Part shown: piece by piece, positions 6,576 through 54,217 of the stretch
How the letters are laid out: the number at the start of each line of letters is the position of its first letter
How positions within the stretch are numbered: the first letter of the stretch is position 1
From: Clostridia bacterium
GTDB taxonomy: Bacteria > Bacillota > Clostridia > Oscillospirales > CAG-272
DNA: 64,000 nucleotides
NCBI GenBank assembly: GCA_017456005.1
Contig: JAFTLJ010000096.1
Location: forward strand, 1,597 to 65,596
Reading direction: 5' to 3'
Translations under genes and position numbers: made by a program
Notes under the pieces: generated by a model
What the model was told of the DNA's origin: nothing
The model's database searches: none
The model's input: the letters and a program-made list of their open reading frames with translations, nothing else

Positions 6576-6649
6576 TGGAGCGAGCGACGGGAATCGAACC
6601 CGCACATTCGGCTTGGGAAGCCGATGTTCTGCCACTAAACTACGCTCGC
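6576..6649 (-). tRNA. tRNA-Gly(CCC)
   Basis: Reverse complement GCGAGCGTAGTTTAGTGGCAGAACATCGGCTTCCCAAGCCGAATGTGCGGGTTCGATTCCCGTCGCTCGCTCCA forms a cloverleaf; anticodon CCC; encoded CCA. Confidence 0.95.
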
Positions 6650-6686
6650 GAAAACCAAAACAGCTCGGAAAACCGAGCTGAGTTGA

Positions 6687-6762
6687 TGGAGCTGGTGATG
6701 TGACTTGAACACACGACCTGCTGATTACGAATCAGCTGCACTACCGACTGTGCTACACCAGC
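6687..6762 (-). tRNA. tRNA-Thr(CGT)
   Basis: Reverse complement GCTGGTGTAGCACAGTCGGTAGTGCAGCTGATTCGTAATCAGCAGGTCGTGTGTTCAAGTCACATCACCAGCTCCA; anticodon CGT. Confidence 0.95.
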
Positions 6763-12244: not shown

Positions 12245-12448
12245 ATGAAAGAAGGAATACATCCTAACTACGTTGACGCGAAAATCATTTGCGCGTGCGG
12301 CGAAGTTATAAATACAAAATCTACAAAAGGTGACTACCACGTGGAAGTTTGTTCCAAATGCCACCCGTTCTTCACCGGTAAGCAGAAATTCGTTGATGCC
12401 GGCGGCCGTGTAGATAAGTTCAAAAAACGTCTTGAAAGCAAGAAATAA
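12245..12448 (+). CDS. rpmE: 50S ribosomal protein L31 (zinc-binding C+ type)
   Basis: [32 protein letters not shown]. Confidence 0.97.
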
Positions 12449-21631: not shown

Positions 21632-21715
21632 TGGTGCGAGAAACGGGACTTGAACCCGTACGGTGAATCCACACGCCCCTCAAACGTGCGCGTCTGCCAG
21701 TTCCGCCACTCTCGC
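21632..21715 (-). tRNA. tRNA-Leu(GAG)
   Basis: Reverse complement GCGAGAGTGGCGGAACTGGCAGACGCGCACGTTTGAGGGGCGTGTGGATTCACCGTACGGGTTCAAGTCCCGTTTCTCGCACCA; long variable arm; anticodon GAG. Confidence 0.95.
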
Positions 21716-37059: not shown

Positions 37060-37162
37060 TTTGAAAACCCTCCTGTAAATATAAATTTACCGCACCGAAA
37101 AGATCCGTGCGGTAATTATATAACAAGAGAAAAATTCCACATATAATGTGAAAACTTTATAT

Positions 37163-37258
37163 AATCTTCCTACGCCGGTATTATCCGTTTCAGGTTAAAG
37201 GGTTCTCGGAAAAATATCCTCATCTCAGCCGACTATTTTATCAGCACCCCCGACTATT
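37163..37258 (-). promoter_or_regulatory. TPP riboswitch
   Basis: Minus strand GGGGTGCT..GGCTGAGA..ACCCTTTAACCTGAAACGGATAATACCGGCGTAGGAAG; candidate expression-platform hairpin TTACCGCAC..GTGCGGTAA at ~37087-37115. Confidence 0.93.
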
Positions 37259-37599
37259 CAGTTGCGGTTTACTATATGATAATACAAAATAAGCGTTTTG
37301 TCAAGGTTATTTATCAATTTTCGGCAAAACCGTCATACGTAGCTTGCGATTTGATTTTTGCAATATTCATATTTCTCTCTGAAAATAAACAGAATATTTT
37401 TTCTATTCTAATTATATAATAGTATGGGCAATATTGCAATAGCGTGAAAAAAATTGGTATTTTTTTGCGCTTTTTGAATTGTTTGTGCGATTTTTGGCAA
37501 ACAATTTGCCAAAGTGATTGAAATTCACAATTTATTAACAAAAAAATGGAGGAAAAGTCTTGACAAAAAGTCATTTTAGTGGTAAATTCTTTATAGAAG

Positions 37600-49286: not shown

Positions 49287-51524
49287 ATGAACGGATATTG
49301 GATTGCTACTGTACAAAAACCTACAGAAACCGCTTTTTATAATTTTACAAAGACGTTTGTTCTTTCGCAAAAAGCCATTTCTTTCGAAATAAACGTAAGC
49401 GCAGATACGCGCTATAAGCTTTACGTAAATGAAAATTTTGTTTGTGAAGGCCCTTGCCAGGGCGGTAAAGATACACAGTATTTTGAAAGCGCAGATGCTG
49501 TGGAATTTTTGCACGTGGGCGAAAACACCTTGCGCATATACGTGCAACACGTTGTGGGTGATATGTTTCTTTCGGAATACCGCAGGGAACAGCCCGCGGT
49601 TTGGTTTAGCTCCACTCTAAAGCTGGAAACCGGCGAAAAAACGGAAATAGTAAGCGACAAAACATGGGCTTGCAGCGAGGATTTGGGCGCGAAAACGCAC
49701 GTTTGCAAGGATATGCACATAACAATGCCGCCAAATGAAACGGTGTTTTTTGATAAAGCAGAAAAAACACATGAAATAGAGGAGCTTTATAAGCCGTGCC
49801 TCGAAACTAAATGTGTTACACGCTGGGGTGATGCACAGAAATACATGCTTGCGCCGCGCCCCATTCCTCTTTTTCATGCAGAGGAAGCTCGGGAGCTGAA
49901 GCCCGAGCGAACAGGCGAGAATTTCTTTGAATTTGATGCAGAAGAATACACCACGGCATATGTGCGTGTGCGCTTCAAAGCCCCAAAAGGCTATGCCGTG
50001 CGCATAATATACTCCGAATGCCGCGCCTTCGAAGAGCATTACCATGATGAAGACGGCGACCTGCGTGTGCGCACGATAAAAAAGAACCGCGACGATGCAG
50101 AGGGGAAAATTTTCGGCGCTTACGACCTTCTGTACGGTGCGGGGGAAACGAGAGAGCACACGTTTTTCTGGTTCCGCGCATTCCGCTATATCCGCATTGA
50201 ATGTGATGTGCCGTTCGAAGTTCAGCTTTTCACAGCGAGATACGTTTACCCTTTTACAAAATTTGCGTGCAGAGAGGGCGTGGGAAGCTTTGTCTCTAAC
50301 CAAAAAATGCTTGACGATATGTGGAAAATAAGCATAAACACCGTGGAATGCTGCACGCACGAAACCTTTGTAGATTGCCCGTATTACGAGCAGGGGCAGT
50401 ATTCTATGGACGGGCTTTTGGAATCGCTGTTTGCGCTTCGCCTTTCCAACGATACATCTATGCCGAAGAAATTTATAGAGGACCTTGCACGAGGGCAAAA
50501 TGCAGAAGGGCTTGTGCCTGCAAAAGCGCCTTGTACCTTCGATCAGCTTATACCGACGTTTGCACTTTTTTGGGTTATGACGGTGCGCGAATACCTGAGA
50601 TATACGGCAGACGCGGAGTTTGCAAAGAAATACACGGGCACGATCGACAAAGTGCTCGAATGCTTCAATTCTTTCATAGACGAGCGTGGCTTGGTCGGTG
50701 AAACACACTATTGGAACTTTATAGATTGGGTGCCCGAATGGAGCAGAAACGGCTCTATAGATGAGGGCAGGACAACGCTTACCGTCTACAGCATGATCTA
50801 TGCCGCGGCGCTTGTCGATGCGGCTGATATAGCTGAGAAATGCGGCAGACACGGGCTTGCGGCAGAGTACAGAGAGCGCAAGGCGGCGCTCGTTTGCGCG
50901 ATAAACGAGCATTGCTACGACGAAGAAAAGGGAATGTACACAGACGTTCCCGGCAGAAGGCTTTTCAGCCGCCACACTACGATTTGGGCGGTGCTTTCGG
51001 GTTGCGCTTACGGAATGGCGGCAAAGGTGCTTATAGAGCGCACATTCGCCTATAACGACGTGAGCCTTACCACGTTTTCTATGAACTATTTCACGTTCCG
51101 TGCGCTCGAAAAGACGGGACTTTACGAAAAATATGCACCTTCTGTTTTCGGCGGATGGAAAAAAATGCTCGATCTTAACTGCACCACTTGGTGCGAAAAC
51201 CCCGACAGCCCGAGAAGCGAATGCCACGGCTGGAGCAGCACGCCGATGTACGAAATTTCCGCGATGGTGCTCGGTGTTTACCCCACGGAGGATGGCTTTG
51301 CCAAAGCACGCATAGCCCCTGTGAGCGTACCGGAGGGCTTCCGCGCAAGCGGCAGAGTGCCGATTCCCGAAGGGTACATAGATGTCGCCGTTTCGCGTGT
51401 TGGCGAAAAAATGAGCCTTTCCGTGAATGCTTCGCGCGAAATAGAGCTTGAAATAAAGCTGCCGGGATACGAAGCCGAGAAGGCTTATACGAAAAAATAC
51501 TTTGCGGAGTGTAAAATTTTATGA
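49287..51524 (+). CDS. Alpha-L-rhamnosidase-like glycoside hydrolase (GH78)
   Basis: SADTRYKLYVN, FVDCPYYEQ.QY.MD, FIDW, TTWCE..RSECHGWS. Confidence 0.85.
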   Translation: MNGYWIATVQKPTETAFYNFTKTFVLSQKAISFEINVSADTRYKLYVNENFVCEGPCQGGKDTQYFESADAVEFLHVGENTLRIYVQHVVGDMFLSEYRREQPAVWFSSTLKLETGEKTEIVSDKTWACSEDLGAKTHVCKDMHITMPPNETVFFDKAEKTHEIEELYKPCLETKCVTRWGDAQKYMLAPRPIPLFHAEEARELKPERTGENFFEFDAEEYTTAYVRVRFKAPKGYAVRIIYSECRAFEEHYHDEDGDLRVRTIKKNRDDAEGKIFGAYDLLYGAGETREHTFFWFRAFRYIRIECDVPFEVQLFTARYVYPFTKFACREGVGSFVSNQKMLDDMWKISINTVECCTHETFVDCPYYEQGQYSMDGLLESLFALRLSNDTSMPKKFIEDLARGQNAEGLVPAKAPCTFDQLIPTFALFWVMTVREYLRYTADAEFAKKYTGTIDKVLECFNSFIDERGLVGETHYWNFIDWVPEWSRNGSIDEGRTTLTVYSMIYAAALVDAADIAEKCGRHGLAAEYRERKAALVCAINEHCYDEEKGMYTDVPGRRLFSRHTTIWAVLSGCAYGMAAKVLIERTFAYNDVSLTTFSMNYFTFRALEKTGLYEKYAPSVFGGWKKMLDLNCTTWCENPDSPRSECHGWSSTPMYEISAMVLGVYPTEDGFAKARIAPVSVPEGFRASGRVPIPEGYIDVAVSRVGEKMSLSVNASREIELEIKLPGYEAEKAYTKKYFAECKIL

Positions 51525-51910: not shown

Positions 51911-52318
51911 ATGCTTAAAATGATCGTTGGTGTAAAAGGCACCGGTAAAACAAAAACACTTATTTCCATGGTAAACGCTGCAACCGAGCTTTCCGCAGGT
52001 TCTGTTGTTTGCCTTGAAAAGGGCACAAACCTTCGCTTTAACGTTAAATATCAGGCAAGACTTATTAACGTTGACGAATACGCTCTCGCTGATGCACAAT
52101 CTCTCTACGGTTTTATCGCAGGTGTATATGCATCCAACCAGGATATAACACATATTTTTGTTGACGGAACATACAGAATCTGCAACAAAAATATTGCTGA
52201 ATTTGAAAAATTTGTTCTTGAATCTGCTAAATTGGCAGAAGAAGCTGACATTAACATTGTTATGACGGTTTCCATGCCTCTTGAAGAAATTCCCGAGAGC
52301 ATTAAAAAATATATGTAA
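51911..52318 (+). CDS. Small conserved P-loop-like protein
   Basis: G.KGTGKTK N-terminal motif, LYGFIAG..ASN.DI..IFVD; codon usage like highly expressed genes. Confidence 0.8.
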   Translation: MLKMIVGVKGTGKTKTLISMVNAATELSAGSVVCLEKGTNLRFNVKYQARLINVDEYALADAQSLYGFIAGVYASNQDITHIFVDGTYRICNKNIAEFEKFVLESAKLAEEADINIVMTVSMPLEEIPESIKKYM

Positions 52319-52476
52319 TTTTTAAAAAAGTTATATCCGAAATTTAAGCGGCGGTGCAGTTTGCTCTGCCGCTTTTTCCTGTGTAGGGAAGAGAGCAACA
52401 AAAAAACAGGCTTGACGCCTGCACATCCTAATATAATAGAAATAACCCTTGATTACTCTTTCACCGTAACCAAGGG

Positions 52477-52509
52477 TTATTTCTGTTCACTCTTGAAGTC
52501 TAATTTCAT
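52477..52509 (-). CDS. Putative 10-aa peptide MKLDFKSEQK
   Basis: Strong SD AAAGAGAGGA then AAAT ATG; stop lies in the arm of the 52439-52483 hairpin. Confidence 0.35.
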   Translation of the reverse strand: MKLDFKSEQK

Positions 52510-52704
52510 ATTTTCCTCTCTTTCTATGTATTGCCTGCTGTAAAATCTTTTTGGGAAACTTTTTTCACATTGCTTAAGTTGCTGTTTTTTTGATTAAAAT
52601 TTTTTGCTTTAAGATATTACCTTTTAGCAACCCCACAACTAAAACGCTTTATCTTTTGGCTTTAGATTTTAATCTTTTGTGTGAGTTTACTTTGAGTTGA
52701 AGCA

Positions 52705-53005
52705 TCAGGTTTTCATTGGAGTATACCTCTTCTTAAAAATTTATTTTTAGAAAAGAACTTAGGTTTTCATTGGAGTGTACCTCTTTTTAGAATTTGGTTT
52801 GGAAAAAATTCAGATTCTCATTGGAGTATACCTCATATAGAATTTCCGTTTTTTGTGTGAGTTTTTTGATAAAGATAGAAGTTAAATGTTGGAATGCACC
52901 TCTTTCATTTAAGGCTTATTCTTTTGATAAAAACTAAACCGGAATTTTGGAATGCACCTCTTCCATAGAATATAAAATTGATTTTCATTTGATTGGTACG
53001 TACCT
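52705..53005. repeat. Degenerate tandem array of six TTGGWRYRYACCT motifs (period 46-68 bp)
   Basis: Copies at 52716, 52770, 52821, 52889, 52947, 52993; secondary repeat TTTTGTGTGAGTTT at 52675 and 52851. Confidence 0.85.
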
Positions 53006-53368
53006 GTTATAAGATTGAGCGCTCTTATAATTTTAAAGAATTTTGAGTTCACTTGTGTGTTACTCTTTCTTTGTGATTTTATTATAGCATATATTTTTTG
53101 CGTTTTCAATTGACAAATTATAAGAATTGCACAATATTTTTTTGTATAATAGGGAGAACTTTGTGCAGTATTATAAATTATGCTTTACAAATACACATTG
53201 GATATGATATAATATTCTTGTAGCGCGGGTTTTGTGTGCCCGTGCTTTTTTTATTTTTGCGCAGTATTCAAAAAACTTGTGTCAATAAAACATTTTTCGC
53301 CATAAAATACGGTAGGAGAAGAAGCTCGGCAAGGGCTTTTCTCAATTACTTTTGGAGGAAGATGTTTT

Positions 53369-54217
53369 ATGCCTGAAAACAGAAATAACGTATGCGCAGG
53401 TGTAGACTTCGGACGCGACACGGTGTATATCGATACAAACAGAATTCTCGATTGCTGCCGCGATAAGGATTGCTTCGAGGACGTACCCGTTTACCTCGCC
53501 TCCCCCTGTGCTGAAGTTTTGCAGACTTGTGTAAATATCAGGACAAAAAGCGCCGAGATCATCGCCGCAAATATAGGGCTCGACGAAATTCCGTTCAGCC
53601 CCGGATTCTACCAAATAAATATAAGGATGTTCTTAAAAATAAAATTTGAAGTTTGCCTGGCAAACGGCAGGGCAGAGGAGGTTTGCGGGCTCTGCGTGCT
53701 CGACAAAAGCGTGATACTTTTTGGTGGCGAGGGCAACGTAAGCGTGTTCCGTTCCAAGGCGGAGGAGGGCTCCTTCTGTGCAGGTATACTTACGGGTAAG
53801 AAGCACACGAACCTGCCCACAGCCGTATTTGAGGTAGCGGCACCGATTATCCTCGGCACAAAGGTGGCAGATCTTATGCCCGGCATGCGTTGCGGCGTGT
53901 GCCCGTGCGACATTCCCGAATGCGTGGCGGATTGCTTCGACGGCTGTATGTCATACACTTCCAATATGCCGCGTATAATTACGGTTTCCATAGGGCTTTT
54001 CTCTGTTGTGCGTGTGGAGCGCCCGGGGCAGTACCTCGTTACGGGAACGGAATATGCCGTGCCGGAAAAGGTGTGCCCGCCCGATTGCCCGGAAAACCCC
54101 TGCGAAATGTTCCGCAGAATGAGCTTTCCCGTGAACGAATTTTACCCTCCCTCTGCCATAGGCTACCAGCCGAAGGTGCAGGCGCAGGGCGGCTGCGGAT
54201 GCGGCAAAGCAAAATGA
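53369..54217 (+). CDS. Cys/Pro-rich conserved hypothetical protein (possibly spore coat/exosporium)
   Basis: SD GGAGG; ILDCCRDKDC, many Cys, PCEMF..FPVNEFYPP, terminal GCGCG. Confidence 0.75.
   Translation: MPENRNNVCAGVDFGRDTVYIDTNRILDCCRDKDCFEDVPVYLASPCAEVLQTCVNIRTKSAEIIAANIGLDEIPFSPGFYQINIRMFLKIKFEVCLANGRAEEVCGLCVLDKSVILFGGEGNVSVFRSKAEEGSFCAGILTGKKHTNLPTAVFEVAAPIILGTKVADLMPGMRCGVCPCDIPECVADCFDGCMSYTSNMPRIITVSIGLFSVVRVERPGQYLVTGTEYAVPEKVCPPDCPENPCEMFRRMSFPVNEFYPPSAIGYQPKVQAQGGCGCGKAK

Follow-up and report, generated by a model that had tools for sequence, protein, structure and literature searches.

Sequence evidence for an RNA cassette of gut Clostridia with predicted ribosome start sites on tiny reading frames

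What kind of gene consists of a promoter, six copies of a short motif and a terminator, with no long open reading frame (ORF) in between? The question is raised by a locus on the minus strand of a 64,000-nucleotide (nt) stretch from the metagenome-assembled genome (MAG) of a Clostridia bacterium (GenBank assembly GCA_017456005.1, contig JAFTLJ010000096.1, positions 1,597 to 65,596), which we call the window and whose coordinates are used throughout. A preliminary description, made from the letters of the window, had pointed to the motif array and offered three alternatives for it: a protein sponge of the CsrB type, a minigene array that engages ribosomes, and a type III antitoxin-like RNA of the ToxI type. 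Comparative data favour the minigene array and leave the CsrB-like and ToxI-like alternatives unsupported. Judged by its sequence, the locus is a copy, one of two in its genome, of a self-contained and conserved cassette found in gut Clostridia and above all in Oscillospirales, and the only parts that are conserved throughout the family are predicted ribosome start sites for three-codon and nine-to-ten-codon frames. The RNA family most likely acts through being translated, and not as a classical protein gene or a folded RNA.

The motif array and its simpler relatives

The motif had been described as six copies of AGGURYRYWCCAA, and a search with the pattern AGGTRYRYWCCAA finds exactly these: it matches six times in the window, always on the minus strand (at 52716, 52770, 52821, 52889, 52947 and 52993), against a chance expectation of 0.05, and none of 100 shuffles reached six matches. 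In the whole 2.12-Mb genome there are only four further matches, and the reversed control pattern gives none. The copies are spaced irregularly, at 46, 58, 68, 51 and 54 nt. Numbered from the promoter side, module 1 (52993-53006) is a degenerate form, CAGGUACGUACCAA, without the Shine-Dalgarno (SD) core, and the AUG that lies 8 nt further on reads ACG in the ortholog introduced below. Modules 2 (52947-52960) and 3 (52889-52902), both GAGGUGCAUUCCAA, keep the motif and have AAA and ACA, respectively, where AUG would be expected. A correctly placed AUG is found only in copies 4 to 6, which read GAGGU-N8-AUG and continue as AUG AGA AUC UGA (MRI*, module 4, 52810-52834), AUG AAA ACC UAA (MKT*, module 5, 52759-52783) and AUG AAA ACC UGA (MKT*, module 6, 52705-52729), all on the minus strand; the tripeptide frames announced at 52821-52810, 52770-52759 and 52716-52705 thus read as had been said. 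The same geometry, GAGGT-N7/8-start, had been attributed to ribosome-binding sites of ordinary genes in the window, and the rpmE part of that claim is correct (GAGGT-N8-ATG, at 12245). The MAG itself has no recognisable 16S rRNA 3′ end, which was not assembled.

A blastn search with the window unit returned a full-length ortholog, 85% identical, from another species of the genus, and several genomes that match the last 100 nt, including a second locus in the same genome. Compared with the ortholog, 3 of 84 columns are changed in the six 14-nt motifs and 4 of 33 in the remainder of the three mini-ORFs, as against 50 of 186 in the spacers (Fisher p 1.8e-6). Every mini-ORF stop is kept: the four differences are two exchanges of TGA for TAA (modules 4 and 6), one synonymous change (ACC to ACT, module 5) and one replacement of T by I, which makes module 6 MKI* with TAA. 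This contrast between motif and spacer, a comparison that the preliminary description had proposed, supports the view that the motif is functional and under stronger constraint than the sequence around it.

The second locus of the same genome (contig C4, L029:1516-1964) has the same parts in the same order, with one motif copy only. This paralog consists of a promoter, AAAUCACAAAC, the module AGGAGGUACAGUCCA AUG AGA AUC UAA, about 330 nt of intervening sequence, an SD, an ORF (AUG AUG UUA GAU AUC AAA AUC GAA CAG AAA UAA) that runs into a long hairpin, and a second terminator. With the paralog as query, 45 of the 201 genomes sampled from the same family match, spread over 32 of 97 genera, and one relative has three units in tandem, about 590 nt apart. 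A pattern for the hairpin arm hits at least 119 stretches in named species genomes; among the matches listed, mostly MAGs from animal and human gut, are Oscillospiraceae, Faecousia, Acutalibacteraceae, Avispirillum, Flemingiibacterium, Lawsonibacter and Clostridia, and a minority are chance matches in unrelated phyla, where SD, ORF and hairpin are missing. Searched with a covariance model built on the 3′ module, 19 of 151 sampled genomes of the order (11 of 30 families listed) contain the element, and so do 11 of 151 sampled genomes of the class, including other orders with the whole architecture. A profile search gave 167 qualifying matches on the forward strand, which reduce to 142 distinct units, and the distance from the −10 element to the end of the 3′ module has a median of 412 nt (range 220-762 nt). 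A phage origin was considered and rejected, an 18-nt pattern having given two matches in viral contigs, both within unrelated coding sequence.

The family makes the array legible. In 109 of the 142 units the 5′ part follows a simple pattern, in which a purine-rich SD just after the −10 element is followed by a GGU..CC spacer, AUG, one or two codons and a stop. To avoid circularity, modules were also collected by SD, spacer and ATG alone, with the downstream sequence unconditioned; 107 of the 121 distinct modules so obtained are three codons long and 10 are two codons long, the remaining 4 being longer or open, and in the other two frames the first stops scatter. The SD-led tripeptide minigenes that had been noticed in the window are therefore conserved features of the family, with two or three codons in 117 of 121 cases. 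Their peptides vary widely (MYK 19, MYR 18, MNR 13 and about 40 other kinds), as do their stops (TAA 94, TGA 19, TAG 6); a fixed length of three codons with varying residues indicates that length is selected and peptide sequence is not. Several 5′ modules per RNA occur also beyond the window copy and its ortholog (in units L051/L133, L173, L165 and L047, and in two units of an aligned cluster), so that the six-fold array of the window is an amplified form of the family 5′ module and not a new kind of repeat. The window copy is a derived member, the normal form of the family having one or two 5′ modules, and a striking repeat array in one genome could thus be decoded through its simpler relatives.

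The stretch is present in six metatranscriptome RNA runs. Contigs from four RNA runs, of four studies, cover 52484-53070, and other pieces lie only on flanking coding regions; between 52086 and 52409, three of the four runs have no contig. Run X14 shows a word depth of 197-1400 on 52484-53070 versus 6-26 on the neighbouring gene, and adapter letters flank both ends of the contig, which ends at 53070; at the other side the contigs of all four studies end at 52484-52488, although such contigs show neither strand nor true ends and their depth is a poor measure of abundance. In X15 and X18 the contigs contain an additional repeat unit of about 53 nt, with a joint from 52738 back to 52711 and 25 other letters between, which means that related strains have seven modules and that array length varies between strains.

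The 3′ frame, the terminators and the surroundings of the unit

The best-conserved element of the family lies at the other end of the unit, where an SD and an ORF of eight to ten codons are fused to a terminator hairpin. In the window, the SD GAGAGGA (52514-52520, minus strand) stands inside the family-wide AGAAAGAGAGG block (alignment A2) and is followed by a ten-codon ORF, AUG AAA UUA GAC UUC AAG AGU GAA CAG AAA UAA (MKLDFKSEQK*, 52477-52509, minus strand). The preliminary description had seen no long ORF between promoter and terminator, and this stands; it had not listed the short conserved one at 52509-52477. Among 36 distinct units that were found by blastn alone, the frame of eight to ten codons is intact in all 36, with its stop directly before CCC. 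Where the Leu, Asp and Lys positions deviate from their commonest codon, the change is synonymous in 9 cases and non-synonymous in 1, counts that come from related sequences and are not independent events; the frame also shows E/D and K/R exchanges and in-frame deletions of 3 nt. On these alignments, the substitution pattern of the 3′ ORF is of the coding type. Its last residue is K, R, I, E or Q in the 36 units, and never N. The base after the stop is invariably C (as CCC, in alignment A2), and TAG is used in none of the 36. In Escherichia coli, C after a stop codon is a weak termination context, and here it might entail slow release at the 3′ ORF stop. A hairpin over the 3′ start codon, proposed by RNAalifold, was dropped, as it is not consistently kept in alignment A2.

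The hairpin itself, T1 (52435-52487, minus strand), has 22 bp and a U-rich tail, and its 5′ arm holds the last codons and the stop of the ORF. Across 90 sequences, 17 stem pairs are paired in 98.8% of cases, and 11 of the pairs have changes on both sides; none of 500 shuffles reached the observed values, and no slid register came near it. The middle base of the stop codon belongs to the stem, being paired as G-C in 58 sequences and A-U in 32, and unpaired in none. At least five T within 9 nt follow T1 in 119 of 131 units, and a second hairpin with a T-run lies no more than 115 nt from T1 in 74 of 131. Because the stop codon is inside the stem, a ribosome terminating there must open the hairpin. 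In the window the second terminator, T2 (GCAGGC/GCCUGU and U7, 52399-52422, minus strand), is the intrinsic terminator that had been named at the outset, with a stem at 52422-52406 before the T-run. T1, and not the signal at 52400-52422, may be the main 3′ end, and the RNA contigs end near it.

At the 5′ side, the claimed near-consensus promoter of the sigA type is real. It comprises TTGAAA (53109-53104), a spacing of 17 nt and TG-n-TATAAT (53086-53081), spans 53081-53109 on the minus strand and matches the consensus in 11 of 12 positions, with the additional TG; it is kept in the ortholog and in family members. Promoter and terminator bracket about 670 nt without a long conserved ORF, an arrangement that supports a stand-alone transcription unit and from which we infer transcription of the minus strand. 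The RNA would start at about 53074, close to the end of the X14 contig at 53070, and its first segment (53007-53074, minus strand) contains two hairpins (53072-53035 and 53030-53007), which had been proposed before and are seen in the computed fold. Only the window copy and its ortholog carry this two-hairpin insertion; in the paralog, AAAUCACAAA leads directly to the SD.

The body of the RNA is rich in A (40%, versus 27% in the genome) and poor in C (15% versus 23%). The fold of the window RNA has a z-score of −3.07 against 20 shuffles; for the paralog, with 100 shuffles, it is −3.18. The strong terminal hairpin probably explains much of both values, and we do not take them as evidence for a global fold. 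No consensus fold was found in the middle of the RNA among 16 aligned members of the Acutalibacteraceae type, and two alignments, each of 16 sequences, show no shared pairing near the modules; a weak pairing of 4 bp between the module UCC and the 3′ SD is predicted, without covariation. Pairing of the 5′ end with boxes like AAACUCACA was seen by eye in two paralogs, is not general and was dropped. A "classic" subfamily, which includes the C4 paralog, has more structure: a covarying pseudoknot-like element of 3+3 bp, CAC-G-GCG-GUG-N5-CGC, in which GCG:CGC is replaced by ACG:CGU in four sequences and CAC/GUG by CAU/AUG in one, and a long-range helix immediately upstream of the 3′ SD, GCCUUUUGC/GCAAAAGGU, likewise with compensatory changes. 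Together these might form a domain that binds a ligand or a protein. The window copy has neither the pseudoknot-like element nor the helix.

Among smaller features, the two copies of AAACTCACACAAAA that had been listed are genuine and belong to repeat family D6, with AAACUCACACAAAA at 52851-52864 (copy 1) and 52675-52688 (copy 2, minus strand). Several longer frames were rejected: one of 66 amino acids (52909-53109, minus strand), which is unconserved and starts inside the −35 hexamer; one of 27 amino acids after module 1, not conserved; and MEEVHSKIPV and MKEVHSNI, two frames that cross modules 2 and 3, also not conserved. Two ATGs of the rejected longer ORFs read ACG in the ortholog.

Upstream of the unit, a second promoter-like site faces the other way (TTTACA, 18 nt and TATAAT with TG, 53184-53213, plus strand; 11 of 12 positions), and about 9 nt after its −10 element follows a hairpin with a T-run (53222-53256, plus strand), which predicts a transcript of about 35 nt. 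The arrangement recurs in the family: among 100 distinct upstream regions, 78 have an opposite-strand promoter scoring at least 10 of 13, and in 58 it is followed by a hairpin and T-run, with the hairpin starting mostly 8-11 nt after the −10. The predicted divergent RNA measures about 25-76 nt across family loci (for example L101, L137 and L168), with a median of about 36 nt, and the stem of its GC-rich terminator is not conserved in sequence. None of the contigs of the four RNA runs lies on 53139-53381, but an RNA of about 35 nt is not to be expected in such libraries. The promoter-terminator pair could be an insulator, a sink for RNA polymerase or the source of a tiny RNA.

Between the two promoters lies a conserved spacer (53110-53183) with TTTKYACAA-like repeats, here ..TTATACAAAAAAATATTGTGCAA.., as judged from a listing of 104 upstream regions and from column conservation anchored at the −35 element. 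Two such boxes stand about 24-25 nt apart in examples counted by eye, and an ATTTCTGYG box lies upstream of the family −35. The upstream boxes are probably operator sites of a regulator; the conservation anchored at the −35 is too blurred by differences in spacing for a transcription factor to be named by a genome scan.

The unit has no fixed company. Clustering of the gene neighbourhoods of the 142 units revealed no partner gene, the commonest neighbouring protein cluster occurring beside 12 of them. In the window, the flanking ORFs (51911-52318, plus strand, 135 amino acids; 53369-54217, plus strand, 282 amino acids) have no Pfam match at E 0.001. Further away are an ORF of 745 amino acids for a rhamnosidase-like glycoside hydrolase (49287-51524), three tRNA genes (at 6579-6762 and 21635-21715), a thiamine pyrophosphate (TPP) riboswitch (37150-37261, minus strand, 63.4 bits) and a match to Gut-1 RNA (RF01706; 61997-62068, plus strand, 51.3 bits, the cut-off being 50). 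Beside the tandem units of another genome there is a second Gut-1 match, weaker and partial (L025:3039-3094, 34 bits).

The family appears to be new to the databases consulted. Rfam 15, searched with 52250-53400, gave no match at the gathering threshold, and at an E-value limit of 10 only hairpin look-alikes of microRNA models on T1 (31 versus 90 bits); six typical family loci likewise gave only chance hairpin matches. The search that had been suggested at the outset thus points to no described family at either threshold. Nor was an earlier description found in the literature on minigenes, tripeptide or three-codon ORFs, mccA and small RNAs of Oscillospiraceae, supplementary tables not being covered, and the available part of PMC11109978 contains nothing similar.

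How the RNA might work

How would such an RNA act? The account that we favour, while stopping short of calling it probable, is drawn by analogy with the mccA message: a tiny-ORF RNA, rich in A and protected by ribosomes, whose 3′ peptide or nascent chain is the active part and whose 3′ end, at T1 or T2, is chosen by the position of the ribosome. An abundant, A-rich RNA of about 590-650 nt would be made from the cassette. Ribosomes held on the three-codon ORFs would shield this unstructured RNA and so give it a high steady-state level, and the ORFs may be short enough for repeated translation without release; the available part of one study describes reiterative translation without ribosome release as possible on ORFs of 2-8 codons (PMC6495379). 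The 3′ ORF would be translated, with its peptide, or the ribosome making it, as the active principle. A ribosome at the stop would melt T1, and occupancy would decide whether T1 forms, with T2 as a back-up. Translation of the ORFs, stabilisation by ribosomes, the switch between T1 and T2 and the action of the peptide are all steps that we infer.

Several observations weigh against this account. Modules 2 and 3, which lack an AUG, keep the motif perfectly in two species, and the SD-like motif may therefore matter without translation, be it by docking of 30S subunits or, equally, as a sponge. A single 5′ stabiliser should be enough, and six or seven copies are not explained by stability alone. 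The stem of T1 is conserved in sequence well beyond what a terminator needs. The extra structure of the older, classic subfamily hints at a function at the RNA level that the window copy has lost. The limits of the RNA contigs given above, on strand, ends and abundance, apply here too. Finally, the window peptide ends in Lys, where the Asn of mccA is obligatory, and no modifying enzyme is linked to the unit, so that the analogy with mccA, to which we return below, is architectural only.

The modules without AUG, the amplification to six or seven copies and the conservation of the T1 stem keep alive the strongest rival, which we nonetheless consider unlikely. In it, the RNA is a trans-acting translation device, whose minigene array parks or cycles ribosomes or 30S subunits, with the peptides as by-products. 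Such a device would consume initiator tRNA, release factor and the capacity of peptidyl-tRNA hydrolase, and it would serve to sense or buffer the capacity for translation, or the stalling caused by initiation inhibitors, with RNA abundance or the T1/T2 isoform as the read-out. Selection of the 5′ modules for length (107 of 121 with three codons) and not for peptide fits this well, as do the retention of the SD-like motif in modules without AUG and an RNA that is abundant, A-rich and unfolded. The presence of 2-7 modules per RNA in several other units, and the variation between strains, are what would be expected if dosage of binding sites were selected, and the conserved repeats upstream of the promoter suggest regulation. 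A precedent for sensing exists in the three-codon uORF(MIN) of vmlR, which senses stalled initiating ribosomes according to the accessible part of that study (PMC9226507). What such a device does not account for is the conservation of the 3′ ORF at the level of amino acids; moreover, the known three-codon sensors sit in leaders of resistance genes, whereas here nothing is controlled in cis.

If the AGGU..CCAA sites are instead taken as the functional units in themselves, the RNA becomes a sponge that titrates an RNA-binding protein or a small RNA acting on the SD regions of mRNAs. The sites are repeated and conserved, they lie within unstructured, A-rich RNA, and two of them are conserved without a start codon. 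However, the genome, 94.65% complete, contains no match to CsrA (PF02599) or Hfq, searches whose controls responded in 3 (CsrA) and 5 (Hfq) of 14 genomes; the CsrC model of Rfam reaches 10 bits, where the cut-off is 61; and the motif, AGGU-N5-CCAA in unpaired RNA, is without GGA. One or two sites are all that an ordinary family member has, and an exact three-codon ORF after each site would have no role. A sponge, and with it the CsrB-like alternative, is improbable on these grounds.

The layout of SD, short ORF and terminator is that of a classical attenuator, and terminators in tandem are found in 74 of 131 units, so that the tiny ORFs and T1 might be thought to control read-through into a downstream gene. 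At the window locus this is contradicted by the next gene, which converges on the unit, no same-strand ORF following. Across 111 units the longest downstream ORF has the same direction in only 63 (opposite in 46, absent in 2), no gene family recurs there, and T2 stands directly behind T1. With no recurrent neighbour and a convergent gene in the window, the unit is not a leader as far as we can judge, and we regard a cis-acting role as very improbable.

Least credible of all is a repeat RNA of the type III antitoxin kind, left as an orphan, or else a set of DNA-binding sites that has no function as RNA, for which the repeated motifs and a 10-bp palindrome in the first copy, GGTACGTACC, might be cited: no ToxI-like family matches in Rfam, the spacing (46-68 nt, as listed above) is irregular where ToxI has pseudoknot repeats in regular tandem, each about 34-36 nt long, conservation is confined to the motif while the spacers diverge, and no neighbour recurs among the 142 units (a search for ToxN, PF13958, found none in this genome and is uninformative, the control having rung in 0 of 14 genomes), while against a DNA array speak the conservation of strand-specific features (SD, AUG, a stop two codons on and stop-to-stop changes) and the presence of the stretch in RNA libraries. 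With the CsrB-like, ToxI-like, DNA-site and leader explanations unfavoured, an RNA that works by being translated remains.

It is tempting to speculate further, with a good deal of doubt, that the cassette is a dedicated chromosomal "minigene RNA", regulated and insulated: perhaps ribosomes cycling on one to seven three-codon ORFs and on the nine-codon ORF, whose stop lies within its own terminator, gauge or buffer translational status in trans, or perhaps formylated tri- and nonapeptides serve as signals. If this were true, it would be the first minigene array of natural, cellular origin to have a physiological role, one in which occupancy sets the stability of the RNA and the choice of the T1 or T2 end, and the array ties up ribosomes, initiator tRNA and capacity for release and recycling. 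So far, three-codon ORFs have been described as sensors in a small number of resistance-gene leaders, and minigenes as a curiosity of laboratories and phages; here three-codon ORFs form the conserved core of an independent, abundant RNA gene, which about a fifth of the genomes sampled from a major gut family carry and which extends to other orders of Clostridia. Should the ORFs prove to be translated, the cassette would offer a natural system for reiterative translation of ultra-short ORFs, for protection of RNA by ribosomes in bacteria without RNase E, and for coupling between a terminating ribosome and an intrinsic terminator, together with a conserved nine-residue peptide that lies below the size limit of gene callers and protein databases.

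Likeness to known systems

The closest counterpart of the 3′ module is the mccA message. According to the parts of the two sources available, it too has a strong SD and a tiny ORF (7 codons, against 8-10 here) with an intrinsic terminator directly behind, it is likewise a very abundant short transcript, and its ORF length is conserved (PMC4231749, PMC6495379); binding of a ribosome to the 7-codon ORF induces termination at the following terminator and renders the RNA very stable (PMC4231749). The differences are several. Here there is no MccB or other fixed neighbour, the stop lies inside the stem and not before it, a 5′ part of 300-600 nt with three-codon ORFs precedes the ORF, and the peptide sequence is conserved, whereas MccA sequences, as far as those sources go, are not.

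For the 5′ modules the nearest match is the three-codon sensor of resistance-gene leaders (vmlR and lmo0919 type), such as uORF(MIN) of Bacillus subtilis vmlR. In the accessible portion of its description this uORF consists of an SD and AUG, two codons and a stop, with interchangeable residues (MIN, MDN, MDK and MRK), and responds to ribosomes stalled at initiation by lincomycin (PMC9226507). Residues are similarly interchangeable in the present family (MYK, MNR, MRI, MKT, MRK and MIN). The vmlR uORF is part of a leader, lies in an anti-antiterminator hairpin and, in the text available, switches on a downstream ABCF gene (PMC9226507), whereas the unit described here stands alone and carries its modules, sometimes several of them, in unstructured RNA, with no alternative pairing seen in the two alignments of 16 sequences.

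A further comparison is with the bar minigenes of phage lambda, very short SD-led ORFs that act via the translation machinery by drop-off of peptidyl-tRNA. They are phage-borne and are known from their toxicity in hydrolase-deficient hosts, whereas the present family is chromosomal and conserved across orders of Clostridia; also unlike bar, its modules vary in their last sense codons, so that no single tRNA is targeted. The STAB-SD type of stabiliser in Bacillus mRNAs shares with the cassette a strong SD near the 5′ end of a Firmicute RNA, which can protect the sequence downstream. Such stabilisers stand singly on ordinary mRNAs and work with no ORF behind them, whereas the cassette conserves a start codon and, after two further codons, a stop, in a module that may be multiplied.

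Among regulatory RNAs, CsrB and RsmZ share with the family a stand-alone RNA with repeated short, purine-rich sites, and differ in that there is no GGA-in-loop motif here and the sites precede conserved three-codon ORFs. RNAIII with hld, and SR1, are highly folded dual-function RNAs that act by base-pairing and encode peptides of 26-39 residues. Like the cassette, they are stand-alone, strongly expressed RNAs of about 400-650 nt with a short ORF and a regulated promoter beside a divergent one; in the cassette, by contrast, the middle is unfolded and poorly conserved, and the ORFs have 3 and 8-10 codons. Each element of the cassette therefore has its precedent, be it the tiny ORF, the ribosome-dependent termination or the SD stabiliser at the 5′ end, whereas a stand-alone and widely conserved gene composed of them does not.

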